64,000 nucleotides of DNA from a virus. Positions 517 to 63,762 of the stretch are shown in pieces. Position numbers and translations under genes: made by a program. Each line of letters opens with the position of its first letter. Within the stretch, counting starts at the first letter, position 1. The stretch covers positions 1 through 64,000 of IMG/VR virus record IMGVR_UViG_3300029959_000014; one strand, given 5' to 3'. The notes below the pieces were generated by a model that did no database searches, was not told where the DNA came from, and was given only the letters and a program-made list of their open reading frames with translations.

Positions 517-582
517 ATTTAAATAATATAAGTTATATTATAAAAAGATTACGGTCCAACCACTAGTTTTATATAACGGCAT

Positions 583-662
583 GACCAATATGTATGTGCC
601 CAACAGTAATAGAATGACAACAAGGAAGAGGGATCTTTCCTTTTGTTGTTTTGTTATGATGG
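583..662 (+). repeat. dispersed ~90-nt intergenic repeat, copy A (ATGTATGTGCCCAA ... hairpin ... TTTTGTTGTTTTGTTATGATGG)
   Basis: The conserved 5' and 3' blocks are shared with copies at 29201-29288, 54587-54670, 30474-30555 (inverted) and a partial copy at 6576-6600. The central segment forms a different but complementary hairpin in each copy. Confidence 0.6.
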
Positions 663-778
663 AATTGTGGCTACGTGTTCGCTCTTTTGTTAAACTAACT
701 CATTTACAGTAGTTTGAACGATATTTATATTGACTCATATAAATATTTAAATATATAAAAGATAAATTAATAATCTAT

Positions 779-2377: not shown

Positions 2378-2575
2378 TTAATCGCTTTTAATGCGAGATC
2401 TCGCGAATACGCTGGTGAACCAAACCATTGCAAGATATGTCCACATGGTGAGTTCAATTGCTTTTGTGAAGAATACTCCGACGAACAAGGTATTAAGCGC
2501 CCAAATAGTGATGATTGGACATACAACAATAAAGGCTATAATCAATACAACTAACAGGATTTCCCTATCATACAA
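2378..2575 (-). CDS. small hydrophobic membrane protein (65 aa), uncertain
   Basis: It has two predicted TM segments. It lies in a 540-bp intergenic gap with overlapping alternative ORFs. Confidence 0.2.
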   Translation of the reverse strand: MYDREILLVVLIIAFIVVCPIITIWALNTLFVGVFFTKAIELTMWTYLAMVWFTSVFARSRIKSD

Positions 2576-2769
2576 TTATAAATATGTTGTTATAATATGT
2601 AAACTTAACTATAACATCCCATCCACATTTTGAATTGAATCCACTTCCAATATACAGCGGTGAATAAGTCATGTTCAGCGAGTTTAAAACGAAGGCGTAA
2701 CATATTTATATAGTGTGATTTCATCACATAAATAATTATGCTTGAAGTTATATAAAAAGAATGGGATAA

Positions 2770-2781
2770 TTTCGCGCGAAA
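2770..2781. promoter_or_regulatory. perfect GC palindrome TTTCGCGCGAAA immediately 3' of the GT47 gene stop
   Basis: This is a 12-nt GC-core palindrome in an AT-rich context. It is related to the TTTCGCGCCGA upstream element. Confidence 0.35.
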
Positions 2782-2790
2782 ATTGTAATG

Positions 2791-3705
2791 TTAAGTTTGC
2801 TTTATAATGCGGTTGATATCATCTTCATAGTAATCGAAGTGTTTTATATAGCCATCAACACTACAATATTCGTGGTAAAGTTTGACCAACTTGTCTTGGT
2901 GTTGTCTAAATGATTTGTCATCGGTGAATTGATTGTGGAAATTGTTTACATCATCACGAATGTTACGGAGATCATTGACGTTCACTATGCATTGATCCCA
3001 GTCGATTTCGTTCTCGAATGGTAGTGGGTCGCCGGTGTCAATGTGAACTGGGATGCGACCACTGGCTAACAATTCGTAAAATCGCGCGCTGTAATTGCCC
3101 CAACCACGAACAGCAAGACCATATGGATGTTGTGACATCGCATGATAATATTCACTTGGATTGAGTCGTCTACCACTGATGTGATGGAAACTTCCCTGGA
3201 TAAATTGAGTCATCCTCAAATCAATCTGGGTGTTAAGTCCACAAGTCGCTAATGACACCACGCTCATGTATCTGGCATTTTGTTGTGGAAATATCTGACC
3301 ATTTTCCATGATCACGAAATCACCAGCAAACCAAACACTCGGCTCATCATCAAAGTCAAGATGCTTCAATTGCTTTAGATGACTATAATCGGTGTATATG
3401 AATAGTAATTGATTGTCACTGACACCCTTTGTGATTGATGGTCGAAGTTCAACACCTTTGAAACCTTGTATGGGGATGTCTGGAGCATCAACAATCATGA
3501 AGAAGCCATCATACTTATTGAGATCTTTGAGTCTTGACATTGGGCCATCTTCGTTGATGTTGCCTTCGTGGTAGAATACTCCTGGATAAAAATTATATGT
3601 ATCACATATATCCTTTAACTTCAAATACAGGACATGATCGACTTCTTTTCTACCCTCTCGAATTTCATCAAGAGAACTTTTAGTTAAAATAACATTACTG
3701 GGCAT
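2791..3705 (-). CDS. exostosin-like (GT47 family) glycosyltransferase
   Basis: The C-terminal block ARFYELLASGRIPVHIDTGDPLPFENEIDWDQCIVNV matches the exostosin motif RFxEAL.xGCIPV....W.LPF.E.IDW. Confidence 0.5.
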   Translation of the reverse strand: MPSNVILTKSSLDEIREGRKEVDHVLYLKLKDICDTYNFYPGVFYHEGNINEDGPMSRLKDLNKYDGFFMIVDAPDIPIQGFKGVELRPSITKGVSDNQLLFIYTDYSHLKQLKHLDFDDEPSVWFAGDFVIMENGQIFPQQNARYMSVVSLATCGLNTQIDLRMTQFIQGSFHHISGRRLNPSEYYHAMSQHPYGLAVRGWGNYSARFYELLASGRIPVHIDTGDPLPFENEIDWDQCIVNVNDLRNIRDDVNNFHNQFTDDKSFRQHQDKLVKLYHEYCSVDGYIKHFDYYEDDINRIIKQT

Positions 3706-4249: not shown

Positions 4250-5026
4250 TCACATGAACTTTTCAAGGATTTCATCCCCATCTTCACTTGATTCAGAAAG
4301 TTGAGATTGTTCATTAGGTTTGTGGTATTTATTAAGCATTTTACCAATAATGTTTTTACGTTCTCCTATGTCAGAATATTCTAATTCATGGAGAACAATA
4401 TCAGCACCAATTGCAAGAGATACTCTAGCCAAATCTTTAATCGATGCTTTGTTTCTCATACCACGACGATGGTGTCCCATTGAAGTTTCGTTTATCATAA
4501 TATTTTCTTCCATGTATCGTCTACGTGGGACTACTCCATTTTCATGATGAGATTCATAAGTATCATGAACTGCCTGCATTAATGGATAATGATTTTGTTT
4601 AGTGATTTCGCGCTGTTCATCCCAATTATCCGCAAGTAAACCACTTGCTTTTGATAGAAATTGCTTTTCATATGCTTCGCCCAATACAGTTGTTGCCCAT
4701 TTCTTAAATTTTATAATTGTTTGTCTTTTATCTTCAGGATATGATTTAGTATTAATCATAAACATAAGCCCGATTATACCATCTCTTGACAAACAAACCT
4801 GTTCTATTGGAGATCCATTCATCCGGGATACAGTGTCCCGGATGTAAAGACCGTCAAATGTGTCACTATTTCTACCTATAAGTTTCCTTATAGTATCATT
4901 TTCAACTCCGATTGCATTAGAAATGGAAGTGACGGATATATACTTGATACCGTCCTTAATTACGCATTCAACAGGAGTTCCCATGAATTCCATTTTAACA
5001 ATTTCATTACTAGATTTCTTCATCAT
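4250..5026 (-). CDS. Bro-N/KilA-N domain DNA-binding protein
   Basis: The N-terminus FMGTPVECVIKDGIKYISVTSISNAIGVENDTIRKLI fits the Bro-N pattern (F..G..V...DG..Y.....I..AIG..N...R..I). Confidence 0.45.
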   Translation of the reverse strand: MMKKSSNEIVKMEFMGTPVECVIKDGIKYISVTSISNAIGVENDTIRKLIGRNSDTFDGLYIRDTVSRMNGSPIEQVCLSRDGIIGLMFMINTKSYPEDKRQTIIKFKKWATTVLGEAYEKQFLSKASGLLADNWDEQREITKQNHYPLMQAVHDTYESHHENGVVPRRRYMEENIMINETSMGHHRRGMRNKASIKDLARVSLAIGADIVLHELEYSDIGERKNIIGKMLNKYHKPNEQSQLSESSEDGDEILEKFM

Positions 5027-5226: not shown

Positions 5227-6078
5227 TTACTCACTCGATGTTGCATTAACGTTGGTAACTTCGTCTTCAACTGCTTGTTGTGAGGTTTGATTGTCCACCA
5301 CTGTTTTGTTAGATGCATATCCATCCACAGTTGTAGTGTTGAGAACTTTGTTGTAGGCATCTTTGAAACCGGTGTATGAGGTCTTGTAACCTGCCTCATA
5401 ACCACCAGTGGATGAATTAATCTGGGTGTTGTCGTGCTTGATGATGTCGTTTTCGTAGCCATATGATGTATCGGACTTGTTAAATCCTTTGATTGCACTT
5501 GAGTGGAAGTCACGATATGCATAACCCTGATCGGCAGCAACATACAGATCATTAATCATGGTGTCATCAACAGTTCCCGTAGTGGAATCCAATTGCACGT
5601 TTCCAGAGGCCATTGAACTGAACTTTCCACTAACACGCTGTTCACTTGGATACCTTGAAGTCGATAGATTGCTGTCCATAGCCACGATGTTTCCAGCAGC
5701 ATCACAAATAACATCTGGACGATTGCTTTTGAGATCGGTGATACCTGATGTAGCGTCAAAATTTATCATACCGAGTGTATCGACATTTGCCACATTCTTA
5801 TATACATTGGAAGTTGCCGCACTAACAGTTACAGATTCTGTGTGTGCTGTTCTCCCAAGTGTCAAGATTGTTTGACTGTTGCCTTGTTCATTTAATGTTC
5901 CAGCAATCTGCCCAAACTTGTAACTTCCATCCAGCGTGGAACTATACACAGCGGTTCTAGAAGTAATACTATCGCTTTGCCCATACGATTCAAATTTGGC
6001 TGCTGCAAGTGATGGCGCCACTATAATCATCAGACAAAGCGTAATGAAAGTTATGTGTTGTAAAAGTTGTAGTTTCAT
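5227..6078 (-). CDS. secreted Ser/Thr/Asn-rich protein (signal peptide)
   Basis: An N-terminal cleavable-type hydrophobic leader is followed by a low-complexity S/T/N/G-rich body, a candidate envelope or glycoprotein. Confidence 0.5.
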   Translation of the reverse strand: MKLQLLQHITFITLCLMIIVAPSLAAAKFESYGQSDSITSRTAVYSSTLDGSYKFGQIAGTLNEQGNSQTILTLGRTAHTESVTVSAATSNVYKNVANVDTLGMINFDATSGITDLKSNRPDVICDAAGNIVAMDSNLSTSRYPSEQRVSGKFSSMASGNVQLDSTTGTVDDTMINDLYVAADQGYAYRDFHSSAIKGFNKSDTSYGYENDIIKHDNTQINSSTGGYEAGYKTSYTGFKDAYNKVLNTTTVDGYASNKTVVDNQTSQQAVEDEVTNVNATSSE

Positions 6079-6336: not shown

Positions 6337-6492
6337 CATTATAGTTTTTCATTGCCGTCGAATGGGCAGTTTTTCTTTTCGCGTTCGGTTCGAAGATCGA
6401 CTGTTTCATCGATGATTTTATCAATCTGCTCGCTGGTATCTTCACGATCACCAGAAAGATCTTGATCTAAAAGGGATTTTCGCCTAGCCATA
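6337..6492 (-). CDS. small acidic ORF (51 aa) with its own promoter elements
   Basis: It begins with ATG (rc of cat 6490-6492). The CGCGCCGA element and a TATATAA box lie 55 and 25 nt upstream respectively. It is below the size cutoff of the ORF track. Confidence 0.3.
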
Positions 6493-6534
6493 CAAGTGGT
6501 ATGTGGTTACACTTATATAATAGTTATGGTATAA

Positions 6535-6546
6535 TTTCGGCGCGAA
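6535..6546 (-). promoter_or_regulatory. upstream GC element TTCGCGCCGAAA (gene orientation)
   Basis: This is one of at least 4 copies placed about 50-75 nt upstream of start codons. Confidence 0.4.
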
Positions 6547-6713
6547 GAATAGAAAACTGACGGATGTAGCCTAGCAACATAACAACGAAAAAGAAAACCA
6601 CAAAGAGGCATGTGGCTTTCTGTGACGTATGTTAGTAATGGGGGGGTACATACAGGTGGTTGTTCACGTTATATAAATGTTGTGTTCTAGTTGTAGAAGT
6701 CAAAAGGTAAACA

Positions 6714-9059
6714 TTAGAAGCCAAATTTTTGTAGATTGGTTTGACCTTTTATTGCTGTGTTCCATTCAATGTCAACTGCCCAGAAATATGATTCAAGTTT
6801 CTTCTTTATGGTTTTTTCAGCCATTAATTTCCAATCTACTAGATGTGATATTTGTGAGGTATCAAATCCATCATCTATACATATTGTTTCTCCATGTTTA
6901 AGGTGGACCAATCTTGGTTTTTCTCCTTCTTGGATTGTATAGTTGAAGTGTTGTAATGCATAGGTTTTCCCATCAGCCCAAGCATTCTTTTCACCATTGT
7001 AATTGGTCTTACGAAGTTCTCTAGGGATGGATATATCGTAGATATTGGCTGTTCCATCAAGAACCGATCGGTAATGATCACGGACGAATTTTGTTGCTTT
7101 TTCAACTTCACCTTTAAGTAGAGTTGTTTCTAATAAATAAGATAGACACTGTTTGGTCATTATTGAATTATCTGAACGTTTTATTTCAAGTCCCATGAAT
7201 TTAAATTCATCGCAATCTCTACCTTCTTCCCAGATGAGATGACCAGCATACTTCTTCTTACTAGCCTGTGATCTATCATTGGATTTTGGCTTAAAGATTA
7301 TACGACGAAATAATTTTTCAGATTTCAATTTGAAATGGATTTTACATCCTTGTTCATCGGACCACTTTACTAATTCTTCATTTAACCATTTTTCAAAGTA
7401 TAAACATTCGGAGCCTGTTTTGACCTCAGAAAAGAAAACGGAGTCCGTATCGCCGTAGATTACCGATTTCCCCTTCAATTTGACGAGTTCTTGAATATGT
7501 TTATTGATCTTTTGCCCAGTGGCAGTTACGAATGCTGCTTTTTCTTCATCATAACATTCAGATGACTCTGCGCCCATAATTCCATAAATAGAGTTCACCA
7601 GAGCCTTTGCTGCGGAATCACGTGCACTAGCACCGTCTAATCCACGATTCTTCTGATCTCTATAGACTTCACGCAGATCCATAAGTTTTTGAGTGGACTT
7701 GTGAATTATTCCATCGCAGTCACTAGAAAGTTCGTAGGCTAAAATTATGTGTGGGTAAAGGGAATTCAAGTCAACTGTTGCTACCCACTCATGTACACCG
7801 AGTTTTGGAGTGACAACTAATGCACCTGGAAACTTCGGTCCATCATCTTCATCGTCACCTTTGTATTTACGGCGAGGAAGGGGTTTGATGCCTTCATGTC
7901 GAACATAGGTGGCAATGATGGTGCTGTTGTGTAGACTTTCAGTAATTTTGTTCCCTGCGATAAATCGTATGGATTCAAAGAATTTGTAGAGTCCAAGTTT
8001 CTTGTCAATTACTTTGAGGGCCTTAATATCGTTTTTGCAGTATGCTATGAAATCATCCCATCGTTCAGCAACAATAATATCATTGATGATTGGCCCAAGA
8101 TCTTGATATGTGTATGCTGCTTCTTTTAGAAGTGATTTGTCAGATATGACTGATTTAAGACCATTAGATTCTCTTTGACCTTTACCAACATTGTATTTTT
8201 TGAATGCTTCCATCATATCGAGACATGCACGACCAGGAAGATAGGATCTGAATTGTTCACGCTTCTTATATATGGTTATCTTCGTTGATGGTTCAGCATA
8301 ACGACATAGACTTTTCTTTAGTGTTCCTTGGGTTCGTAGAATTTTAGCACGATTAATAATATATGGTATGTCGAATTGATCACTGTTCCATGCAGCAAGA
8401 ATATCTGGATTAAGTTCTTGGATATAAGCCATTACCATTTGGTAGAGTTCTTGTTCAGTCTCACACATGAATTGATCGGGATCATTTGATTTACCAATTG
8501 CGTAAGTGAATACGACTTCCTTGTCATTGTAGTTGTTGCCAATTTGGATAGATACGATTGGGGCAGTTGCTTCTTTTGGTCCAGTAAATCCACCAGTATT
8601 GTCCCAAGTCTCAATATCAAAATACATTACAAGGGGATCCATAGGATGATCGACTTCAACTGGAATTGGCTTATTGTCTATTACTTTGTAAGCATAACGA
8701 ATTTTATGATCGATCAGGAATCGCTTATCAAATAATACATCGCTTTCACGAGTGAACGAATATCCAAGATCTCGAACATCTCGAACATCAGTAGGAATGT
8801 TTACAATAACTTTTCTAATTTCGTTATGTTTATAGTCTAATAGGATTTCATCTTCAATTCGTTTAATTGCTGGATGAGAAAACTTTGTTGCTTCATTAGC
8901 AGGCACATATAAGTATGGTTCATATGGAAATGAATGAGTTGCAGTGACCATGGGATCTTCGTAACATCGAGAATAGAGATTTACAATTGGTATACCACTA
9001 TGTCTGTCAATGTAATAACCAGATTCCATGACCACATAAGTGCGATCATCAGCATTCAT
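6714..9059 (-). CDS. polB: family B DNA polymerase
   Basis: Exo I FDIET, motif A DLNSLYP, motif B KALVNSIYG and motif C YGDTDS are all present in order. At 781 aa it is compact. Confidence 0.92.
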   Translation of the reverse strand: MNADDRTYVVMESGYYIDRHSGIPIVNLYSRCYEDPMVTATHSFPYEPYLYVPANEATKFSHPAIKRIEDEILLDYKHNEIRKVIVNIPTDVRDVRDLGYSFTRESDVLFDKRFLIDHKIRYAYKVIDNKPIPVEVDHPMDPLVMYFDIETWDNTGGFTGPKEATAPIVSIQIGNNYNDKEVVFTYAIGKSNDPDQFMCETEQELYQMVMAYIQELNPDILAAWNSDQFDIPYIINRAKILRTQGTLKKSLCRYAEPSTKITIYKKREQFRSYLPGRACLDMMEAFKKYNVGKGQRESNGLKSVISDKSLLKEAAYTYQDLGPIINDIIVAERWDDFIAYCKNDIKALKVIDKKLGLYKFFESIRFIAGNKITESLHNSTIIATYVRHEGIKPLPRRKYKGDDEDDGPKFPGALVVTPKLGVHEWVATVDLNSLYPHIILAYELSSDCDGIIHKSTQKLMDLREVYRDQKNRGLDGASARDSAAKALVNSIYGIMGAESSECYDEEKAAFVTATGQKINKHIQELVKLKGKSVIYGDTDSVFFSEVKTGSECLYFEKWLNEELVKWSDEQGCKIHFKLKSEKLFRRIIFKPKSNDRSQASKKKYAGHLIWEEGRDCDEFKFMGLEIKRSDNSIMTKQCLSYLLETTLLKGEVEKATKFVRDHYRSVLDGTANIYDISIPRELRKTNYNGEKNAWADGKTYALQHFNYTIQEGEKPRLVHLKHGETICIDDGFDTSQISHLVDWKLMAEKTIKKKLESYFWAVDIEWNTAIKGQTNLQKFGF

Positions 9060-11523: not shown

Positions 11524-11566
11524 AGGTGTGGAAATATCAATTACAAAACTTAACGCCGATCAACTC

Positions 11567-11938: not shown

Positions 11939-12156
11939 GTAATGTTGGTGTTAGTATTATAAAAACTAGTTGATCGGTGTATGGATTACTAATTTAGCCC
12001 TCAATCTTTTCCCAACCAATGTCGATGTGATTCCACATCCAATCATTGAGCATCTCACTTATTTCATCATCGGAAGTGTCGTCATCAACTTCCAGAGTTG
12101 TTGTTTGTTTACACTTCACTAAATTCATTCCCACGTAAAATTCAACCTTCATAACA

Positions 12157-17809: not shown

Positions 17810-19849
17810 TTAAAAAGTTATTTTCATAACTCTTTCTGTTGCACCCTTAACCTTCACAGTTACAGAAGATCGCTTGGTAGTAGAAAATCCTAGACCACTT
17901 AACTGATCTGTTGTTGATTTTACTGCTGACTTGCTAGACAAGGCTTCAAATACTCGTTTATGTTCATATAATTCTTGCTTTAGATACTCGTTGTAAAACC
18001 CTGATGGACTTTCAATGTTTATACAGTCCTTAAGCATGAAGAATACATGTCTATGACCAATTCCATCCTGTTCATCCCAGTAATTTGGTGAATACATTAT
18101 AACACTTACTGGAATAAACTGATTAGTTTTTATGTTCCACACATCTCGCGATGACATTTGAGATGATAACTTCTCCTGTATACTAAATCCATTACTATCT
18201 AATGTTACTTCTGCAACTACTACATTTTCTCCCGGTCGAAGTTCTTTATTATAAATAAATTCAAAGATCTGTCCATCAAATTCAATTTCTGCTTTGAAAC
18301 CTTCTTTACCACCTCGATTATTATACTGATGAACAAAGAACTTGTATACACCGTGAGACATACTTCGTAGATCAGTGTAAATGATGTTCTCTACTGCTGG
18401 AACACCTTCACGTGGTTGAGTAATATCCACATCGAGTATCCCACTACTTTTGTGTTTATATCCTTTATTGCTAAAGTAAATATGATTATTGCTTGGTTCT
18501 ATGCAATGAGCATCAAGATCATTGGGATCATGTTTACTGTTGTCATTCCACTGAATTGAAAATCGCAGGACTCCATCTACATTTCCACCAGCCATTTTTA
18601 CATTGGCTTTCATAGTAGAATCAGTGATGTTACCTGTGTATGCCCATGAGAATGCATTGTTCCACTTAAACATTGATTTACTATCAGCCTTTGCTGGTGC
18701 AATCAATGATACCATATTAGATGATAGTTTATTCTCAAATAACACTTCAATTTCGCGCACAGATGGCAACATATCACTTATGAATTTAGATACTGGGATT
18801 TCTTCTACTTTTGAGAACTTTTTAGGATCTACAGCAATATCTGATTTCAGACTTTCAAATATATCAGAACTTCCAGTAATACGCTTTGCTGCATCACGAT
18901 TACTAAACAGTATATTGTTGACTGTTATGTCATCAAGCGTTGCATATCTTCTACCAAGTGATGGTAGATATCCAAGTTCCTCTACTGTTTTTTGAGCATC
19001 TTCAAGCATTTTCTTTGTAAAGATTGCTTTAGGGCGCTTGTAATTTGTAGGGGCAACCACCTTCTCGTATCGTTTTACTGCTTCATCGAGTTCCATACCG
19101 GAGGTTATGTCAATTAGAAGTGTCCCTATACTGTGATTACGGATTTTACCAATTACCGGACCTGCTTCAACTGAATATTCCCAAGCAAACACATCATGAT
19201 CTGTTGCTGAACTATACAACAATTTATAGTGTTTAAACTTCTCAAGAACTGATTTCCATTCTTCACCTTTATACAATGTATTGGAATTTATAAGTTCAAG
19301 AACTGTGTCAATACTTTCACTGGACAGTTCATCAAGTGATCGCTTAAATACATCTTTAACTGCCTGATAATTACCTTTAACTGTGTCTAGAGTTTCACGA
19401 CCACTATAAACAAATCTAGATGGAAGATCAACATACAGGTGTTGCCATTCTTTTGCAATACCATCAATAAGTTCAAGATTTTTATCAACCACAACCTTAC
19501 TTTCTTTTGTTACAAATACACCGGAGATTGATTTACTCTTAATATATTTGTGTAGCGCATTAATTACTGTCTGGAATGTTAGATCATTTACTTGGAAATC
19601 CCAAATAGTAGATACCTTACCATCTTTAAGAATGACTACATTTCCAAGATTCTTAATGAATCTTCTACAACATGAACAATCATATTCTCGTCGCTTACGA
19701 TAGATTTCATTAGTTCCCACAGGAAATGCATCAAGATATACATTCCACATTTCATCGAGATCTACATCTACTGTGAACAGATGATTGATGTTAGATGTTT
19801 TGACTTCAAAATTTTTCTGAAGTGCTTTTTTAAATTCTACAAATTCCAT
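17810..19849 (-). CDS. large hypothetical protein (679 aa)
   Basis: It is the longest orphan. It has a CSCCRRF cluster and a DVDLD acidic motif, with no confident family match. Confidence 0.5.
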   Translation of the reverse strand: MEFVEFKKALQKNFEVKTSNINHLFTVDVDLDEMWNVYLDAFPVGTNEIYRKRREYDCSCCRRFIKNLGNVVILKDGKVSTIWDFQVNDLTFQTVINALHKYIKSKSISGVFVTKESKVVVDKNLELIDGIAKEWQHLYVDLPSRFVYSGRETLDTVKGNYQAVKDVFKRSLDELSSESIDTVLELINSNTLYKGEEWKSVLEKFKHYKLLYSSATDHDVFAWEYSVEAGPVIGKIRNHSIGTLLIDITSGMELDEAVKRYEKVVAPTNYKRPKAIFTKKMLEDAQKTVEELGYLPSLGRRYATLDDITVNNILFSNRDAAKRITGSSDIFESLKSDIAVDPKKFSKVEEIPVSKFISDMLPSVREIEVLFENKLSSNMVSLIAPAKADSKSMFKWNNAFSWAYTGNITDSTMKANVKMAGGNVDGVLRFSIQWNDNSKHDPNDLDAHCIEPSNNHIYFSNKGYKHKSSGILDVDITQPREGVPAVENIIYTDLRSMSHGVYKFFVHQYNNRGGKEGFKAEIEFDGQIFEFIYNKELRPGENVVVAEVTLDSNGFSIQEKLSSQMSSRDVWNIKTNQFIPVSVIMYSPNYWDEQDGIGHRHVFFMLKDCINIESPSGFYNEYLKQELYEHKRVFEALSSKSAVKSTTDQLSGLGFSTTKRSSVTVKVKGATERVMKITF

Positions 19850-27678: not shown

Positions 27679-27887
27679 TTCAATTATTCCTTAACAACTG
27701 AAGTGTGTTAGTTGTCTATACACATATTACACTTGACATTATATAAAACCATGAGAAATTTAAAAGAAGTATTTAAGGGTTTGCCTTTTATACAATCACT
27801 TTTATAAAAACTAGTTAATCGGCGTTAATAATTCACTTATTGCCGAATTTACGCCATACCATACATATATTATAAATCCAAAACACC

Positions 27888-29123: not shown

Positions 29124-29200
29124 TACTATTTATATAAGTTAATTTTATAATATATAAAACTAACTGTTTAACACGATCAATATCTTTATATAGTGTTAGT

Positions 29201-29288
29201 GACCAATATGTATGTGCCCAAAGTAACACAACGATAGAGAGAACCAAATGCACGTTGTTTGGTTTTCTTTGTTGTTTTGTTATGGTGG
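29201..29288 (+). repeat. dispersed repeat family, copy B
   Basis: It reads GACCAATATGTATGTGCCCAAAGTAAC, then an ACAACG...CGTTGT hairpin, then TTTGTTGTTTTGTTATGGTGG. Confidence 0.6.
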
Positions 29289-29328
29289 TCTTATTCTGTA
29301 ACCACTTGCATTTACGCCGAGAAAATAG

Positions 29329-29658
29329 TTATGGTAGTTCAAACACTTCATACAATGGATGTGATGAATTTGAAACCAGTGATTTATCATATTCTCGTTT
29401 AAGCATCATACCGCTGTTAATTGTTGTATAGACTTTTAATCCTGCAATTTTGATTCTATAAACTTGTTTGTCTTTAACCAATTCTTTCAAAACATGTAAT
29501 ATACAATGTCTCTTATGTTGTGGGAATGTTTCTTTCAAGGCATCTAAAGAATATAGATGGTCATTATGAGTCATCAAAAATATCATTACATCACTTTCGA
29601 TCGACATATAAAAGAATAGTTGAATTTGATTTATTCTTTCTTGATGTTTGCGCAACAC
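29329..29658 (-). CDS. hypothetical protein
   Basis: It is a co-oriented ORF. Confidence 0.35.
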   Translation of the reverse strand: MLRKHQERINQIQLFFYMSIESDVMIFLMTHNDHLYSLDALKETFPQHKRHCILHVLKELVKDKQVYRIKIAGLKVYTTINSGMMLKREYDKSLVSNSSHPLYEVFELP

Positions 29659-29870
29659 TCAATGTTATACAGAATCAATGGAGAATTGTCAACTGGATGG
29701 TTATACCTACTTGATGATATGTCAACTCGTGAAAGTTCATGAACATATTCTTTTCTAGTATCAAGCATAATTTGAGTAATTTTGCCGGTAGAAACTCTAC
29801 TACAATCTCCAGTTTTTGGATAATGTGTTACATCAATTATATAACGTTCATGGATTTCTTGATTTTCCAT
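29631..29870 (-). CDS. hypothetical small protein
   Basis: It is a co-oriented ORF. Confidence 0.3.
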   Translation of the reverse strand: MENQEIHERYIIDVTHYPKTGDCSRVSTGKITQIMLDTRKEYVHELSRVDISSSRYNHPVDNSPLILYNIECCANIKKE

Positions 29871-29897
29871 AAAATTATATTAATTTAAAAGTATATA

Positions 29898-30212
29898 TTA
29901 TTGTTGCTTTTTAATCCTGCCCTTCACGTAAATTTGATCACTGATGGTTACTATCGTGGATTTTGGGTTGGTTTGTGATTTGGTTTTGAAAGCCCTGGAT
30001 ATTACGGTGTGAAAATAATTACGGGTGATAAGTTCTTCGATGCCGGGGAATTCGACAAGAAACGCGGCATATAAACTGTCTTCAGGAGCAACATCTAAAA
30101 AGTTTTGTTCACCATACGTTCGCACGAAATCACGGATCTTTTCAGATTTGTGAGAAGGATCCATCCTAATTTCGCTTTTGAATTGTGCGTGAACATCATA
30201 TATATATTCCAT
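29898..30212 (-). CDS. hypothetical protein
   Basis: It starts CATACTAGT and has the GC element 70 nt upstream. Confidence 0.4.
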   Translation of the reverse strand: MEYIYDVHAQFKSEIRMDPSHKSEKIRDFVRTYGEQNFLDVAPEDSLYAAFLVEFPGIEELITRNYFHTVISRAFKTKSQTNPKSTIVTISDQIYVKGRIKKQQ

Positions 30213-30266
30213 ACTAGTATATAAGTATTAATATAGAAGTATTTAAATGTTCCCACTAAATTTATA

Positions 30267-30278
30267 TATTAGTATGTC
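30267..30278 (-). promoter_or_regulatory. upstream GC element TTTTCGCGCCGA (gene orientation)
   Basis: It belongs to the same element family. Confidence 0.4.
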
Positions 30279-30473
30279 GGCGCGAAAATCATTAGTTGGT
30301 TGAATATTGAGCAAATCGATTAATACTATTGTATTCCTGTTCAACCACACCAAAAGGTTACGATTACCATTATATAAATCTAGTGCACATGTTAGTTCGA
30401 AGTGCGAACAATTCCAGTTATGAACTAATAAGCAATATTAAATGGTTGCAATCGAAGAATAGGACGAAACACT

Positions 30474-30555
30474 CGCCATAACAAAACAACAAAAAAGAAG
30501 AAAGAACGAGCCTTTCAACTTTGTATTGTTTCGCTACTTGGGCACATACATATAA
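30474..30555 (-). repeat. dispersed repeat family, copy C (inverted orientation)
   Basis: Its reverse complement reads TATATGTATGTGCCCAAGTAGC...TTTTTTGTTGTTTTGTTATGGCGAG. Confidence 0.55.
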
Positions 30556-30703
30556 GATGTTGACATTATAAAAGCATTATGTTGGTGTGAAAATAAAAAA
30601 TTGATTTGTAGGAGGATCATTGTGAGGATATTTCTAGAGAGGACATTTAACTAGTAACAAACTGATCGTCTACATTACCCATATATAAAACTATATGGTG
30701 ATA

Positions 30704-32134: not shown

Positions 32135-32454
32135 AACATAATGACGAATAATGCTACAATGGTGATTGCTTGTATAATGCCTATTGCCATGAGGAGTTTG
32201 TAAGAATTGTTGATCCTGTTGTGTAATGATGATAGTTCATAATCCAGGGTTGATAGATCTTTATCAATTTCGTCTATATCGTTACAAATTTGAGTTTGAT
32301 TGATAGCAAGTTGTTCCACAGTTTCAATTACTGTGCTTACAACGGTGGAATTTGCTTCGTCTTCAAGTTGCTGTACAGTTTCAAGATTGTCAATGATTTC
32401 CTGTTCGGTGATGCGATCATTTTCAATGTATCGTCCTTTAATGAACTTTCCCAT
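32131..32454 (-). CDS. tail-anchored coiled-coil membrane protein
   Basis: It has an acidic coiled N-terminus and a C-terminal TM helix. Confidence 0.4.
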   Translation of the reverse strand: MGKFIKGRYIENDRITEQEIIDNLETVQQLEDEANSTVVSTVIETVEQLAINQTQICNDIDEIDKDLSTLDYELSSLHNRINNSYKLLMAIGIIQAITIVALFVIML

Positions 32455-32511
32455 ACTAGTATGTTAGCGTTAGTATTATAAAATAGTTATTATAAAGAAT
32501 AGGTGGTGTGG

Positions 32512-33393: not shown

Positions 33394-33407
33394 TTTCGCG
33401 CCGAAAT
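33394..33407 (+). promoter_or_regulatory. upstream GC element TTTCGCGCCGAAAT, 10 nt before the promoter box
   Basis: It is centred about -52 from the ATG of 33451. The same element lies upstream of several minus-strand genes. Confidence 0.45.
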
Positions 33408-33417
33408 ATACAATTAG

Positions 33418-33429
33418 TTTTATATAATA
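33418..33429 (+). promoter_or_regulatory. TTTTATATAATA box 21 nt upstream of the plus-strand gene ATG
   Basis: It is the plus-orientation copy of the motif. Confidence 0.55.
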
Positions 33430-33450
33430 TTACGCACATATAATACTGCT

Positions 33451-33810
33451 ATGGATGAATTTATTGATTATGAGAATATTTCTGATATGAATGATATTGT
33501 GGAAGATATAGAATCTGCTGAATGGGAAAGAAAAGTTCGATATGTTCGCGGTGTGGTGAAAGCCAAGATCATTGAAAAGGAGAGAGCAGCCGAAGCATTA
33601 TTGGAGGCCAATGAAAATTACGATAAGGTTGAAGAAGAATATAATGATTTGATTGCTAGAGATATTGATGATTTTGAAGTTCCAGTAGATTTTGAACGCA
33701 ACACATTATCCTCTGTCACAGTTTCTAAATATAATGGTAGAACTATTATTCCAAGTGGGTGGTCAGCGGTTTTTAATTCTGATGGATCTTCCTGGTCAGC
33801 AATTTACTGA
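33451..33810 (+). CDS. acidic hypothetical protein
   Basis: It is the second plus-strand gene and has its own promoter box and GC element. Confidence 0.5.
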   Translation: MDEFIDYENISDMNDIVEDIESAEWERKVRYVRGVVKAKIIEKERAAEALLEANENYDKVEEEYNDLIARDIDDFEVPVDFERNTLSSVTVSKYNGRTIIPSGWSAVFNSDGSSWSAIY

Positions 33811-34686: not shown

Positions 34687-35046
34687 TCAAACTACAGCAA
34701 GTGTGACTTCATTGAGTTTAGAAATCAATCTCACGCTATTGTCAATTTTCTTTTTGTTGTATTGTCGTTCACGGAGTTCTTTGGCGATCACCTCGGGAGT
34801 TTTACTTAATCGGTAGACGTTGGTAGGTCGCCCGATATTGTTTTTAATTCGTTCGCTGATGGCAATGAAGTTGTCCTTGGTAAAGTCACTGATGATGTGG
34901 CTTACAACAGGCTGCTGGAGATCAGTCGCGCGTTCAAGTTCATGTTGAGTGAACTGTTTACGGGTTAAAATCTCTGTGAGAACTTCAGCCTTTTTGGGGT
35001 TGAGACCTAGGGTTTCAAGCGCCTTTATAATTTCTACTTGTTCCAT
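34687..35046 (-). CDS. winged-helix (MarR/TrmB-like) transcription regulator
   Basis: LGLNPKKAEVLTEIL..TQHELERATDLQQPVVSHII...IAISERI..GRPTNVYRL fits a wHTH. The likely start is the internal MEQVEII, which has ACTAGTATG and a TATA-like box at -22..-32. The 22-codon 5' extension in the ORF track is probably spurious. Confidence 0.4.
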   Translation of the reverse strand: MEQVEIIKALETLGLNPKKAEVLTEILTRKQFTQHELERATDLQQPVVSHIISDFTKDNFIAISERIKNNIGRPTNVYRLSKTPEVIAKELRERQYNKKKIDNSVRLISKLNEVTLAVV

Positions 35047-35234
35047 ACTAGTTAATATGATGTAATGAGATATATAATTATCGATTAGAAGGTAGTATAT
35101 ACTCAATGCCATTTACGAGGTGACTTGAATGTTTTACATTCGCATACAAGGTTGAATGTTGTATATAAGGCTTTAAATGCAAATGAAAGTGATTTTGGCG
35201 TGATTATTATATGTATGCGTATATAAAATAGAAG

Positions 35235-36122: not shown

Positions 36123-36640
36123 TAAGTGAACAAATATAATTTACCATATATAAAGAAAGAGATAAAAGTTATATAATAGAAATGTTAAAAAGGTGTCAAA
36201 TAGTTTGTTATAATCGTGTGATGGGATTGATCCATCAAATGATTTAGTGTGGTAATAAGAGAAAATCACGAAAATAATTATACATACATGTAACTCACCG
36301 GCTTCATTACTAGAATTATCCGGCCAAAAATATTAGATGGTGATGAACCAAGTCTACTATCAACGTGTGGATGGTTTGGAAATTTAATGATGGAGTCCAC
36401 ATCAGCCCATCGTATACCGCCATTCCATTAAGCGGTCAAGTTTGTTGTAATGTGATCATTGTGGAAGACTATTCATTGTTTATCCACATGTTTTAAACTT
36501 CTACCCGTGATAGCCGTAAATAACTCAATTGTTATCATTGTGGTCATCTATCTACCGTTTGTTTATTGACCAGCAGGGAAGTTCTAGTCTTGCATGAAGT
36601 TACCTTCATTCTGCACATTACATAACTTGTTTGCATTCTC

Positions 36641-36700
36641 GATATCACTCCCATGCCTGAATGCTAGGCCGAACGTCACGTTTGATATCCAACGTCAACC
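36641..36700. repeat. ~60-nt direct repeat unit 1 (GATATCACTCC...GTCACGTTTGATATCCAACG)
   Basis: A second copy lies at 36860-36915 and flanks the tRNA-like element. Confidence 0.45.
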
Positions 36701-36768
36701 GCTTATACTGTTTTTATCGGTTGAAATATCCTACAGGGCATCCATAATAAATGGTTGCTCAAGTTAGC

Positions 36769-36849
36769 AGTGGATTGATGATGGTGAAAGGAATTGAACC
36801 TTCGTTAACCAACATTAGACGATAGCAAACCGGTCAGACTATCGTAGTA
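36769..36849 (-). ncRNA. tRNA-like element a (7/7-bp acceptor GATGGTG/CACCATC plus T-arm GAAGG-TTCAATT-CCTTT, 81 nt)
   Basis: It has a perfect acceptor helix and a canonical T-loop, but the 49-nt interior (containing a 7-bp ACGATAG/CTATCGT stem) does not give a canonical D-arm and anticodon-arm fold. Confidence 0.4.
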
Positions 36850-36859
36850 ATACACCATC

Positions 36860-36915
36860 AATACCTTCTGATATCACTCCTACGGCGAAGGCAACCTGCG
36901 AGTCACGTTTGATAC
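36860..36915. repeat. ~60-nt direct repeat unit 2
   Basis: It pairs with 36641-36700. Confidence 0.45.
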
Positions 36916-37187
36916 CCAACGCACCAGATCGAGCGGTTTCACCTGGTGAATCACATTCCAACTTAATGGACTTGCCGCAGTGCTGATAACCAGCAATAGG
37001 AATTGCACCTATATCTCCACCAGGAACGATGGTGAGATTCTGTTACTCCATGCTGGTTAGAACTCTTTGTTCGGTCACCCAATTTGTTTCCATGATAACG
37101 CTCGTGGATAATCGCAGTAAACTTCCAAGCGGTAAATTCTGTTTATTCGTGCACTAATAAACTTATTGGTGGGTTTACTTCCACCTA

Positions 37188-37251
37188 TAACTGATGGGTG
37201 GATTCGAACCAACCCGTTGCACACCCATTGTGTCATCGGTTACGGTTGCCA
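37188..37251 (-). ncRNA. tRNA-like minihelix b (acceptor AACCGAT/ATCAGTT, T-arm GGTTCGAATCC)
   Basis: It has a T-loop TTCGAAT and a 6/7 acceptor pairing. Only ~19 nt separate the 5' acceptor strand from the T-arm, so the D and anticodon arms are absent. Confidence 0.4.
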
Positions 37252-37290
37252 CATTTGCGCAGATGTGGTTTACAACCATTTTATCAGGTT
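37243..37290. repeat. 48-nt direct repeat, copy 1
   Basis: It contains a CCACAT-loop8-ATGTGG hairpin and supplies the 5' acceptor strand of minihelix b. It is 47/48 identical to 37551-37598. Confidence 0.6.
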
Positions 37291-37403
37291 TTGGATTTGT
37301 TCCTGGGAAATTAAACCTGCAAAACGCCCACGGTTAACGAGCGTGCCTCGGCGGTTTAACAACTTTGATAATGGGGTTCTAAACCTGCTGAATTGAGACC
37401 CAC

Positions 37404-37461
37404 ATAACCAGTAGTGGATTCGAACCACTCCTCTTTCTCTTCCACCCGTCTGTGGCTGGTT
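37404..37461 (-). ncRNA. tRNA-like minihelix c (perfect T-arm AGTGG-TTCGAAT-CCACT)
   Basis: It has a 5/5 T-stem, an acceptor AACCAGC/ACTGGTT (6/7) and an internal CCAC-AGACGG-GTGG hairpin. Confidence 0.4.
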
Positions 37462-37510
37462 ACTCTCCTTACTCTCGCCTGGGATTTTTATCTCGCAGAG
37501 GATTTCAGGG

Positions 37511-37559
37511 ATAACCGATTGGGGATTCGAACCCCTTAATTCCCATTTGGTTTATCGGT
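37511..37559 (-). ncRNA. tRNA-like minihelix d (acceptor AACCGAT/ATCGGTT 7/7, T-arm GGGG-TTCGAAT-CCCC)
   Basis: It has a perfect 7-bp acceptor and a 17-nt linker to the T-arm. Its 5' strand lies within the 48-nt repeat copy 2. Confidence 0.45.
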
Positions 37560-37598
37560 TACGGTTGCCACATTTGCGCAGATGTGGTTTACAACCAT
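37551..37598. repeat. 48-nt direct repeat, copy 2
   Basis: It is a near-identical copy of 37243-37290. It is followed by a GNRA-capped hairpin GTTGGGATT-GCAA-AATCCAAC. Confidence 0.6.
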
Positions 37599-37784
37599 TT
37601 ATCCGTTTGTTGGATTTGCAATCCCAACCAGGCGTCTTACATTCCCTGTCACCTGCATTCCATCGTCGTAAAGACTTGCCTGCAGGGAAACCATCATACA
37701 AGATTTGACCTTGCACGATGGCTAATTCACTTACCGGGTCATCACTCCCGTATACATTATATTACACGTAATATTATTTAATAG

Positions 37785-52456: not shown

Positions 52457-52834
52457 TTAGCAATTTCCCGTAAACATTTTGTCCATTAATTTCCAATTAG
52501 TTGGTGGAAACCTAAAGTTTTTCTCTAGTATCGTTACACTTAAAACGTAACTATCGAATTTTTCTTGGGCTTCGAAATCCCATGGGGTGTTGTCTATTGA
52601 TTTGGTTAATTGCAGAATGTAGGCTGCATAAATCATTTCATCTTTGAATTGTTCAGCAATATTACGACATTGGATATATGTGTCACTTGTAGTTTTAGAA
52701 CCCTGTAACTTGATGATATCAGTAATCTCATTGAATTGATCATTATAATCTGTGATGCGATCATTCAGTGCTGTTATGTGATCTAAAACTTCATCGTGTG
52801 GCATTGTTAATAGCACACTACTAAACTGTTGCAT
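52457..52834 (-). CDS. hypothetical protein
   Basis: It has a promoter box 21 nt upstream. Confidence 0.45.
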   Translation of the reverse strand: MQQFSSVLLTMPHDEVLDHITALNDRITDYNDQFNEITDIIKLQGSKTTSDTYIQCRNIAEQFKDEMIYAAYILQLTKSIDNTPWDFEAQEKFDSYVLSVTILEKNFRFPPTNWKLMDKMFTGNC

Positions 52835-52855
52835 ACTAGTAATGTATGTGCGTTA

Positions 52856-52865
52856 TATTATAAAA
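52856..52865 (-). promoter_or_regulatory. TTTTATAATA box
   Basis: It lies 21 nt upstream of the ATG of 52457-52834, with CATACTAGTA at the start. Confidence 0.55.
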
Positions 52866-53070
52866 TAGGTTGGTTTTGTTATTAGATACGCTCATCAATG
52901 AATTTCATCAAATGATCTTTATTGCAAAAATGATGAGTTACATCCATATGAAGTCTTTTATCCCCCCACCAATAATGACATCTTCGCCCATACTTACATA
53001 GTAATAACTAATATTGACATCGGGGATCACTTCCCCACAATAGTCACATTTAGTTACATACATTGTATGC

Positions 53071-54350: not shown

Positions 54351-54586
54351 TCATGATTATACACCTATTTCAATAAAATGCTGAATCATCATAATGTCTA
54401 ATAAACATCAAACTATATGAATCAGCAAAATGTTCACTAGGACTTTCAAGTTCATCTATCAATCTCTTTAATGCAAATATAATAATTTGCTTATCTCGTA
54501 TGTCATCTAATTTTAAATCTGGCATTAAAGTTTACCTTTTTAATTTTGATAGTAATCCATAAGTTTTTATAACGTGAAAAATTTAC

Positions 54587-54670
54587 CTGTATGTGCCCAT
54601 AAGTAACTTAACGAAAAAGAAAACATGGACACGATCCTTGTTTTCTTCTTTGTTTTGTTATGAAGTTGCT
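54587..54670 (+). repeat. dispersed repeat family, copy D
   Basis: It reads CCTGTATGTGCCCATAAGTAAC, then an AAAGAAAACA...TGTTTTCTT hairpin, then TTTGTTTTGTTATGAAG. Confidence 0.55.
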
Positions 54671-54884: not shown

Positions 54885-55064
54885 TTTTGCCTCTCAAATT
54901 CACAATCGCACCATAAGCACTTAAATCCAGTTATCCGGATATTTCGACCATGATAAATGTCATCATATTCATAGAGCATTTCCAGATCTTGACTTTTGCA
55001 AGACTTAATGGGACAAGTAATAGGAGATGGTTTTTGTTTTTTAATTTAAATCACCTACAAGTAG

Positions 55065-55080
55065 ATCGGCGCGGAAAATT
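55065..55080 (-). promoter_or_regulatory. upstream GC element (TTTTCCGCGCCGAT in gene orientation)
   Basis: It is a variant of TTTCGCGCCGA. Confidence 0.35.
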
Positions 55081-55358
55081 TAGATGTGGTTGTTTTCAAT
55101 TGCTTTTGTTACTGATTTGTAAATTTCATAATAATCGGCATTACGATGTTTATATAGTAATGCAGCAAGTTCAGTAGCATGGATGAATTGCTCAATTACT
55201 TTATGATTTTTGTTATCCCAAATACGCAGCGAAATTGATCCACAATTACTTACCCTAATATTTATCCAAGAAGCATTTATGTTACTCGGATCTCCTAAAT
55301 CTACTTTAAATTCAGTAGACATTACTAGATTAGTTGTAAATGTTGCCATAATAATCAA
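55080..55358 (-). CDS. hypothetical small protein
   Basis: It is a co-oriented ORF. Confidence 0.35.
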   Translation of the reverse strand: MIIMATFTTNLVMSTEFKVDLGDPSNINASWINIRVSNCGSISLRIWDNKNHKVIEQFIHATELAALLYKHRNADYYEIYKSVTKAIENNHI

Positions 55359-55689: not shown

Positions 55690-55859
55690 CTACTTGTAAT
55701 ATTCATTGGGATCGTGGCCATACTGAACGATGTATTCGTTGAATCGTTCTGAATCATAGGTTTTCATGTGATCCATGATTTTGTTGTAACCATATAGACC
55801 AATCATAACGGTGAGTAGTTTACTAAACTTCTCTTCTGATATAGGCATACATGTATGTC
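55690..55859 (-). CDS. small hypothetical protein (probable start at the internal Met MPISEEKF)
   Basis: TTTTTATAATA and TTTTATAAT boxes plus a CGCCGACATAC element fall inside the longer track ORF 55690-55917 and sit at promoter distance from the internal ATG. The end coordinate is approximate (within ~6 nt). Confidence 0.3.
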
Positions 55860-56062
55860 GGCGTATAAGATTATAAAAGTTACTATTATAAAAATGGTTG
55901 ATTAACGTGAAGATCATGGATCGTTGCGTAACAAGTTAATTGCGTAGTCGTGGAATTGTCCCGGATCTTCGTTATACATAAACTCTATTATTTCACTATA
56001 TCCATAGTCTTTAATGAGTTTAATCATTTTAGTTGTAAAATCGTAGTCATATACACCATATC

Positions 56063-61982: not shown

Positions 61983-62648
61983 AACTAGGGGTTTTCCTTT
62001 TTAATTTAGTGTTCTGAAAACTTTACTGGAAGATAATGAGATGGAATGAACCAACTCACTACCAGTATATTGAAAGGAGATAACCATGAGGAGACAAACA
62101 TGAGGATTTCGTTTACCCGGATCGGATGGAATGTGTCTATGCCAGAATTAACCCGGTTTGGTAGTTTTTTACATTGATACCAGCAATCATGAGTATGGCA
62201 GGAGTTGCACCTGCGTAGGACTGACCACTTGAGTTTGAATCAAGCCCGGTTTCTGCTTCGGTACATACTCAATTAGTAATTTTACCGTGAGCAGTTTAAC
62301 GATCATTATGATCTTGAAACTGTCACGTGGTAAATACACGTTCACTGATCCTTGGTGTTTGGCCTATGTAGATTAGAGTCCGGGCGATCAGTTTCCCTTT
62401 CTACTCAATCCCATTATTGTTACAAGATTTTAGGTGTAAAAGTTTTAGGCATTTTTGCACCTGTTACCTTGCTACACTATAAGATTGATCTGCTGACTAT
62501 ATAATGATTTTGTTTTGATAGTTTTAGAAGTAGTGGATCAATGATCAGAGTTATATACTATTGCTTTTGTTATGAAAAATGTAACGGAAAGATTGTTAGT
62601 GCGCAAGAAAAGAGTGGTGGTGATTACAAGGGAATTTAAGCACTGAAA

Positions 62649-63559: not shown

Positions 63560-63633
63560 AATGGTATTGTATGTTTGGGATTTTATTTATACATTGGTAA
63601 TGGTGGAATTTTAAATATTTATAATTACCTGTT

Positions 63634-63762
63634 TGTGCACATCCCAGACAGAATCGGGTTTCCTGTCAATTCTCTTCTGTTTGAGGTGAATTGTTGATGG
63701 AAGTATACCGAAATGTTTATATAATAGTAGTTACATATATTATTGTGCACATCCCAGACAGA
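63634..63762. repeat. pair of 20-nt direct repeats TTGTGCACATCCCAGACAGA spaced 109 nt apart in an ORF-free terminal region
   Basis: Exact copies occur at 63634-63652 and 63743-63762. Each is preceded by a TATA-like AT stretch. Confidence 0.5.

Follow-up and report, generated by a model that had tools for sequence, protein, structure and literature searches.

The window analysed here, that is the whole 64-kb stretch of DNA, has a GC content of 34% and carries 142 ORFs, 136 of them on the minus strand and six on the plus strand. Its genes encode a family-B DNA polymerase (PolB), a UvrD-type helicase, NAMPT, a dNK/thymidylate-kinase-like protein, an RNA ligase, a RuvB-like ATPase, a PD-(D/E)XK nuclease plus AAA_24, an MT-A70 methylase, a T4-endoV-like glycosylase, a NUMOD3 endonuclease, a Bro-N/P22_AR_N protein and ~100 small ORFans. 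There is neither a capsid nor a terminase gene within the 64 kb, and we therefore speak of a virus on the grounds of gene content. With its best matches among GenBank viruses, which are haloarchaeal tailed viruses, PolB shares only 26% identity, and with proteins of two metagenomic contigs of 133-135 kb, one of which comes from a rice-root-plaque sample, 60-61%; its nearest cellular relatives are uniformly from Methanomicrobiales (25-28% identity). The window apparently belongs to a large archaeal virus-like element associated with Methanomicrobiales, and probably amounts to some half of a genome of ~130 kb.

Some features of the window stand apart from the subject of this work. The 679-aa protein encoded at 17810-19849 (minus strand) has no Pfam or PDB match, and along its whole length it aligns at 59-60% identity with 'hypothetical proteins' from phages of the Bacillus cereus group (BCP78, TsarBomba). 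Its matches comprise 557 phage records (from Salmonella, Klebsiella, Caulobacter and other hosts) as well as PHROG 1735 (E = 8e-259), and such conservation between bacterial phages and an archaeal-type virus is striking. An ORF-poor stretch of 1.6 kb (36123-37784) has a GC content unusually high for this window. In it are an 89-nt sequence repeated directly at 37211-37299 and 37530-37618 (80% identity) and, at 36779-36859, a tRNA-like Rfam match that is not called by ARAGORN; the only tRNA that ARAGORN finds in the window is Leu-CAA at 62189-62271.

The core promoters of the window are of archaeal type. The position of the TATA core peaks sharply at 26-30 nt 5' of the ATG, and the top over-represented 8-mers of the window are TTTTATAA and TACTAGTA, the second of which occurs 24 times against 2.5 expected. 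A TTTTATAA-type box lies at 26-30 nt in 36 ORFs, only 5 of which have an SD-like motif; SD-like sites of the GGTG/GGAG type are found at 42 of the remaining 106 ORFs, at internal operon genes. Since the archaeal TATA box is centred ~26-27 bp before the start site (PMC5512572), a TATA core at this distance implies that the mRNAs are leaderless and start at or beside the ATG. The fixed 26-30 nt between TATA core and ATG, together with the lack of an SD at these genes, led us to reject a bacterial reading with -10/-35 boxes, such as a phage middle promoter. Archaeal viruses depend on the RNAP, TBP and TFB of the host together with small DNA-binding regulators (PMC5569661).

Beyond the TATA box, ~30 promoters share the consensus aACTA-TTTTATAATA-n-AACGCaCATAC-n-ACTAGT-ATG (for example at 52832-52870, 32452-32490 and 33419-33453), so that the core promoters carry a promoter-proximal ACGC..ATAC word and a ACTAGTATG start context. 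Near the window edge, two tandem plus-strand units (63612-63651 and 63716-63761) each consist of a TATA box followed by an identical 17-mer, GTGCACATCCCAGACAG; in the second unit CCGAAAT directly precedes TTTATATAA, making a CGAAA-type BRE. These units may be another small transcript family.

A small number of the promoters carry an additional GC-rich element, here called the GC box, with the consensus 5'-TTYCGCGCCGA-3', which is loosely palindromic as TTCG-N3-CGAA. There are five good copies, which align as (T)TTYCGCGCCGA followed by AAT(T)ATAC in three copies or yMTAC in two, and the exact 8-mer core CGCGCCGA occurs four times in the 64-kb window. The copies, with the short label used for each below, are as follows.

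33394-33407, plus strand: copy 1 (the 33394 box), TTTCGCGCCGAAAT, with the core CGCGCCGA at 33397-33404
6533-6547, minus strand: copy 2 (the 6546 box), cTTCGCGCCGAAATt, core at 6537-6544
2770-2781, minus strand: copy 3 (the 2781 box), a perfect palindrome, TTTCGCGCGAAA, one base shorter than the others
30274-30288, minus strand: copy 4 (the 30287 box), TTTTCGCGCCGACAT, core at 30277-30284
55063-55078, minus strand: copy 5 (the 55076 box), TTTTCCGCGCCGATCT, core at 55066-55073

These positions agree with the first-pass annotation for four copies, and the perfect palindrome that it reported at 2770-2781 is indeed present there; its remaining copy, placed at 30267-30278, was off by ~10 nt and actually lies at 30274-30288. 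The hexamer CGCGCC at the centre of the quasi-palindrome is invariant and the arms vary, a pattern that is unusual for a symmetric dimer site and that points away from a classical wHTH dimer, towards recognition that is asymmetric or a short site of the RHH type. The downstream 'ATAC' was also considered as a second half-site and was rejected on its variable distance to TTCG (11, 11, 13 and 14 bp).

The GC box is real and non-random. Markov models of order 0 to order 3 predict 0.06-0.16 occurrences of the core CGCGCCGA, and 4 are found (Poisson P ~1.6e-6, borderline once corrected for 65,536 words); in dinucleotide shuffles no replicate reached the observed count of either TTCGCGCC (4 against 0.16) or TTTCGCGC (7 against 0.32). 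G/C runs of at least 7 number 21 in the window, and four of the seven that are intergenic are GC boxes. All five copies are intergenic and lie 45-100 nt upstream of a co-oriented ATG, a placement open to only 2.0% of strand-specific positions (f^4 = 1.6e-7), and the sole plus-strand copy precedes one of the six plus-strand ORFs. When words were counted without bias in the -85 to -33 region of 36 leaderless promoters, the top 7-mer was TTCGCGC, the sole GC-rich word listed. Across the window, orientation and position of the good copies with respect to start codons are thus anything but random. Given the borderline corrected P of the 8-mer and the existence of only five copies, the case for the element rests on count and placement combined.

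The promoters and genes that follow the five copies are given below.

33419-33428, plus strand: TATA box of the copy 1 promoter, TTTATATAAT; the ATG at 33451 lies 28 nt after the TATAA core (leaderless)
33451-33810, plus strand: gene after copy 1, a 119-aa acidic ORFan
6511-6522, minus strand: TATA box of the copy 2 promoter, TATTATATAAGT
6339-6491, then 5227-6078, minus strand: genes after copy 2, a 50-aa ORF and a 283-aa secreted-looking ORF
2746-2757, minus strand: TATA box of the copy 3 promoter, TTTTATATAACT; the ATG at 2724 lies 28 nt after the TATAA core
2605-2724, then 2378-2575, minus strand: genes after copy 3, a 39-aa ORF and a 65-aa hydrophobic ORF
30259-30270, minus strand: first TATA-like box after copy 4, AATATATAAATT, 8-9 nt nearer the GC box than elsewhere
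30228-30238, minus strand: second TATA-like box after copy 4, TTCTATATTAA, before the ATG at 30212
29329-30212, minus strand: operon after copy 4, with ORFs of 104, 79 and 92 aa
55041-55052, minus strand: possible TATA box after copy 5, GATTTAAATTAA
54881-54979, minus strand: first ORF after copy 5, 32 aa (the ORFs there are of 32 and 65 aa)

The geometry of these promoters is closely similar at most of the sites. A TATAA-type core lies 26-28 nt past the start of the GC box core in four of the five copies and 19 nt past it at 30287; measured from the other end of the core, the gap to the TATAA core is 18-20 nt, again at four of the five. At three GC box sites the TATA core in turn lies 26-28 nt before the leaderless ATG. 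The register of the box is identical at three sites and agrees to within 1-2 nt at one more; that of 30287 is displaced by 8-9 nt. With the ATG as +1, the GC box occupies approximately -58 to -47 and BRE/TATA approximately -35 to -24, with a short gap between them. The 45-75 nt from element to gene proposed by the first-pass annotation holds at four sites, where the core starts 54 nt (33394), 53 nt (6546), 54 nt (2781) and 72 nt (30287) before the ATG, but not at 55076, where the distance is 94 nt, and the promoter of this last copy is the least certain of the five. Its GC box starts 3 nt past the stop codon of ORF 55080-55349, and copy 3 likewise lies 10 nt past a stop. The genes downstream of the five boxes are mutually unrelated ORFans. 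The TATA boxes TTTATATAAT, TTATATAA and TTTTATATAA are as near to the window consensus as those of promoters that have no GC box.

The GC box of copy 2 lies ~25 nt after a small-RNA-like unit that follows polB. This unit is one of a five-copy family in the window, at 561-665 (plus), 6570-6690 (minus), 29167-29295 (plus), 30470-30600 (minus) and 54565-54670 (plus), with further members in two relatives (L155:12305-12420 and L156:12955-13075), in both of which the copy after polB is conserved. In each unit the TATA box TTTATATAAC is followed ~22 nt later by the invariant start GTATGTGCCC(A) and then by an A-rich stretch. The unit closes with a U-rich 3' end, TTTTCTTTGTTGTTTTGTTATG, that can pair back onto the A-rich stretch, and compensatory changes support 5 of the 18 pairs in the consensus fold. 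Copies C and D of the family (29167-29295 and 30470-30600) form an inverted pair that flanks the operon of the 30287 GC box. The family has no match in Rfam, and it may be of more interest than the GC box itself. Downstream of polB, L156 also contains an apparent cluster of tRNA-like sequences (L156:13280-14200).

The 'degenerate copies' that had been added to the GC box family by the first-pass annotation do not belong to it, since all that they have in common is CGCCGA, and their orientation and spacing differ. We rejected the sequence at 11552-11565 for its opposite orientation, that at 27813-27826 because it abuts the TATA box, and that at 55858-55863 because its place is either inside an ORF or past a TATA box and ahead of the ATG. 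The assertion that the element always has the same orientation therefore holds for the five good copies only. The 'TATA-like box' reported next to it is a genuine archaeal TATA box, whose core peaks 26-30 nt before leaderless ATGs. A second recurrent word, AACGCCGAT(C/T)AACT or ACACCGATCAACTAG, is present at 11552-11565 (plus), 27813-27826 (minus) and 11966-11980 (minus), two copies abutting a TTTTTATAA box and one being inverted. It seems to be a motif separate from the GC box, and comprises the former 'degenerate copies'.

We compared the window with its relatives. The same virus is represented at 99.995-100% nucleotide identity by three further assemblies from other public datasets (L157, L158 and L159; ENA ERZ27247097, SRR5248198 and JGI 3300001866), an identity so high that they are uninformative on conservation of the box. 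A moderately diverged strain is represented only by an 806-bp contig (L160, in which the wHTH discussed below is 86-88% identical) that covers no GC box site. Ten related loci make up 182.6 kb at 32-43% GC, with polB 31-62% identical to that of the window. They contain a single CGCGCCGA, in L168, which is the most distant and the most GC-rich of them (43% GC), and none before the orthologous small gene after polB. As the ten loci lack the box apart from this one occurrence, the GC box is, as far as these relatives indicate, lineage-specific, which fits either a co-evolving pair of virus regulator and site or a factor of one particular host. For the dNK and RNA ligase genes nearby there were no homologues usable in a comparison of conservation. 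Exact-pattern scans of IMG/VR and JGI metagenomes with the box, or with the box plus TATA, returned unrelated contigs only, apparently chance matches, and also missed the source contig.

Other GC-rich words occur in other genomes. L155, whose PolB is 60% identical to that of the window, has its own word, TCGCGCTYTGRTGATTA, of the form TCGCGCT(T/C)TG(A/G)TGATTA, at 1697-1715 and 3620-3640, upstream of the TATA boxes of two genes, AAA_24 and the one that follows PD-(D/E)XK, a hint that upstream boxes may differ from lineage to lineage. The word CGCGCCGAA is present in five AT-rich viral contigs that came up in the pattern scans and have no similarity to the window (L096 at 8830-8870, L061, L050, L244 and L247). 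In L096 and L061 it is duplicated in tandem at a spacing of ~22 nt, and in all five it is followed by a conserved stretch, ...CTAnAAGGGG...CCC.TATCAGAT...

From its sequence and placement, we consider it somewhat probable that the GC box is a protein-binding upstream regulator site, positioned just 5' of BRE/TATA at a small subset of promoters. It would be recognised as double-stranded DNA by a sequence-specific protein, encoded by either virus or host, at promoters that the RNA polymerase of the host would read with the help of TBP and TFB. By recruiting TBP or TFB, the bound protein would turn on or modulate ~5 of the ~36 promoters as a co-regulated group. Activation, or modulation, is the most likely action since a box at -58 to -47 falls in the zone of known archaeal activators, from which Ptr2, TFB-RF1, EarA and the ara-box factor recruit TBP/TFB (PMC5512572, PMC5569661). 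Archaeal activators typically bind upstream of the BRE, and repressors overlap the promoter or the start site (PMC5512572). The proposal of the first-pass annotation, an operator or activator site, is sustained as far as an oriented, promoter-linked cis element at 3-5 of the ~36 promoters is concerned; its repressing form, an operator acting by occlusion, is the less likely because BRE/TATA and the start site stay clear of the box at four of the five copies.

The closest parallels are the archaeal upstream activator sites (UAS), namely those of Methanocaldococcus jannaschii rb2 (Ptr2), Pyrococcus pf1089 (TFB-RF1), Methanococcus fla (the EarA boxes of the fla promoter) and the Sulfolobus ara-box. 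Like the GC box, these are short, lie immediately upstream of BRE/TATA and mark a small regulon at promoters of the host TBP/TFB/RNAP type (PMC5512572, PMC5569661). The GC box also shares with them a location upstream of BRE/TATA without overlap, and a fixed orientation and register. It differs from them in its unrelated sequence, in an uncultured host and a virus-like genome, in binding and activation that are putative, and in a BRE/TATA that is not visibly weak. Activator-dependent archaeal promoters usually have a weak BRE/TATA. The TATA boxes of the GC-box promoters match the window consensus as well as the others do, which weakens the activator reading; this comparison concerns the TATA alone, as the consensus against which BRE strength is judged would be that of the host. 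Weakening it further, spacing deviates at two of the five sites (30287 and 55076).

Outside these systems, T4 middle promoters offer an analogy only: there the MotA box takes the place of the -35 element in sigma-70 appropriation and defines a co-regulated (temporal) class. In each case a virus-specific word stands upstream in an otherwise standard promoter, but the T4 system is bacterial whereas the GC-box promoters have archaeal TATA/BRE. Among archaeal viruses, crenarchaeal promoters are tuned by small wHTH, RHH and AbrB-type proteins that bind near BRE/TATA and in some cases well upstream (PMC1635249, PMC5569661). These sites (those of the host protein Sta1 on SIRV1; the SvtR, AvtR, F55 and C68 operators) resemble the GC box in lying at virus promoters read by host machinery. 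In contrast to the predicted site described here, in a large element apparently associated with Methanomicrobiales, they belong to Sulfolobales viruses, have other motifs and have binders that are demonstrated (PMC1635249, PMC5569661).

The most serious of the alternatives, though an unlikely one, makes the box a repressor operator, or a nucleation site. A small viral repressor, perhaps of the RHH type, would spread from it into BRE/TATA and keep the genes off until a set time. There is precedent in SvtR, a repressor that binds DNA ~80 nt upstream of BRE/TATA and for which polymerisation in the direction of the promoter is proposed, and in AvtR, which protects ~100 nt (PMC5569661). A quasi-palindrome of 9-13 bp is no worse a fit to an RHH-type site than to a wHTH dimer, the box at 30287, alone of the five, lies within ~6 nt of a TATA-type box (the ACTA-TATA box), and the strong TATA boxes are those expected of promoters that need repression rather than help. 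However, BRE/TATA is left free by the other four boxes, and no tandem or degenerate secondary sites are present between box and TATA. Nor was any RHH or similar protein found by the Pfam scan (E <1e-3), which covered ~100 ORFs at 265-54525 and left ~40 small ORFs at the upper end outside it.

It is improbable that the box is instead part of a second promoter, in which CGCGCC(G) would serve as a GC-rich BRE and the A/T stretch that follows as a weak TATA, firing ~25 nt downstream, near the canonical TATA box, perhaps through an alternative host TFB. The eukaryotic BREu has the consensus SSRCGCC. CGCGCC(G) matches 6-7 of these 7 positions, and the CCGCGCC of the 55076 box is a full match. Three copies have an A/T 7-8-mer directly after CCG/GCG (AAATATA, AAATTATA and AAATTAT), and a CGAAA-type BRE directly before a TATA does exist elsewhere in the window (CCGAAATGTTTATATAA at ~63708-63724). 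But such an A/T-rich stretch abuts the box in three of five copies only, being absent from that place at 30287 and 55076, and a BREu abuts its TATA whereas the GC box is separated from the functional TATA by a gap of 13-15 bp. The downstream TATA boxes are at the leaderless distance (26-28 nt), as at ~30 others, and are thus working promoters in their own right; a start inside that TATA would give a leader of 15-25 nt with no SD, unlike any other gene in the window.

That the boxes are an effect of chance or composition, either GC words that have fallen in intergenic DNA or functionless remnants of a duplicated promoter cassette, is very improbable. Such an origin would account for the modest number of copies, with a P that is borderline after multiple-test correction, and for the likeness of the 33394, 6546 and 2781 sites over ~40 nt including the TATA box. 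Against a cassette, no alignment extends into the flanks beyond the box-to-TATA segment, the genes that follow are not related to one another, and it is the GC core that is invariant and the A/T spacer that varies, the reverse of neutral decay at 34% GC. Against chance, placement alone has P ~1e-7, and the 182.6 kb of related loci, similar in composition, hold one CGCGCCGA (and 15 CGCCGA, compared with 14 in the 64 kb).

We give slightly less credence still to the GC box as a BREu-like element read by an alternative TFB. A second resemblance is to the E2F site, the consensus of which is TTTSGCGC: the E2F-like TTTCGCGC occurs at three of the five copies, once at 33394, once at 30287 and on both strands at 2781. 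No E2F/DP (E2F_TDP) domain was found among the ~100 of ~140 ORFs scanned by Pfam, and this together with the archaeal leaderless promoters and the SD-type internal starts led us to reject an E2F-responsive promoter. We treat the apparent likeness to both E2F and BREu sites as the coincidence of a short GC-rich word.

Least credible of all is a terminator or insulator, made of a T-run and GC clamp or of a short RNA hairpin, that ends the upstream unit: a T-run does precede each copy, and copies 3 and 5 lie 10 and 3 nt past a stop, but copy 1 has no co-oriented gene on its upstream side, conservation resides in the GC core and not in the T-run, and T-runs of 3-4 bases are shorter than the 5 or more Ts typical of archaeal terminators. 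RNA folding likewise gave no hairpin worth the name (MFE 0 to -1.5 kcal/mol, z -0.6 to +0.9 against shuffles, two copies unfolded).

If the GC box is an upstream regulator site, several proteins of the window are candidates to bind it.

34687-35046, minus strand: wHTH protein (MarR/TrmB-like, 119 aa), candidate only, its true start being the leaderless ATG at 35046, in line with the first-pass coordinates
4250-5026: Bro-N/P22_AR_N protein, DNA-binding candidate (PHROG 'transcriptional regulator', E = 3e-7)
29329-29607, minus strand: 92-aa ORF in the operon of the 30287 box, wHTH-like by eye, with neither profile nor structural support

Further DNA-binding candidates are several unannotated small ORFs that look like wHTH or Zn-ribbon proteins. 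The wHTH protein at 34687-35046, which the first-pass annotation had put forward as the binder, is the only one among the ORFs scanned with wHTH Pfam matches of the MarR/TrmB type, all of them below the curated thresholds (MarR_2, E = 3e-5; TFIIE_alpha; TrmB). Its PHROG matches are to 'MarR family' and, weakly and not significantly (E = 0.003), to 'MotA-like activator', and a PDB sequence search gave only a weak match (E = 0.38) to AF2008, a protein with no assigned function that we take to be TrmB-like. The AlphaFold models of this protein (pLDDT 58) and of the 92-aa ORF (pLDDT 49) are too poor for a fold search. Nothing links the wHTH protein to the box. Its own promoter (TATA at ~35070-35080) has no GC box, and the 22 kb around its homologue in the relative L162 (39% identity) contain neither CGCGCCGA nor CGCCGA, although co-occurrence is a weak test given that specificity can diverge. 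The box-driven 119-aa ORF and the 119-aa ORF that adjoins the L162 homologue show no homology.

Tentatively, and as a possibility that we regard as doubtful, the elements described here may form a virus-encoded, lineage-specific activator circuit, in which a small viral protein would bind TTYCGCGCCGA, recruit TBP/TFB and, at a given stage of infection, switch on a defined set of ORFan operons. Possible binders are the TrmB/MarR-like wHTH, the protein with Bro-N and the product of an unannotated ORF within one of the box-driven operons.

To our knowledge, almost nothing is known of how genes are scheduled in viruses of methanogens and of other non-extremophile archaea. Published archaeal virus regulators come mainly from Sulfolobales viruses (PMC5569661). 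The GC box is an ordinary kind of element, present in five copies in one lineage, and it leaves the general picture unchanged. What it provides is a concrete handle: promoters on which to run tests, 11 bp as a target for mutation, and a few candidate binders. If a viral activator circuit of the kind outlined above proved true, no temporal transcription switch would have been described before it in a large virus of Methanomicrobiales-type methanogens.
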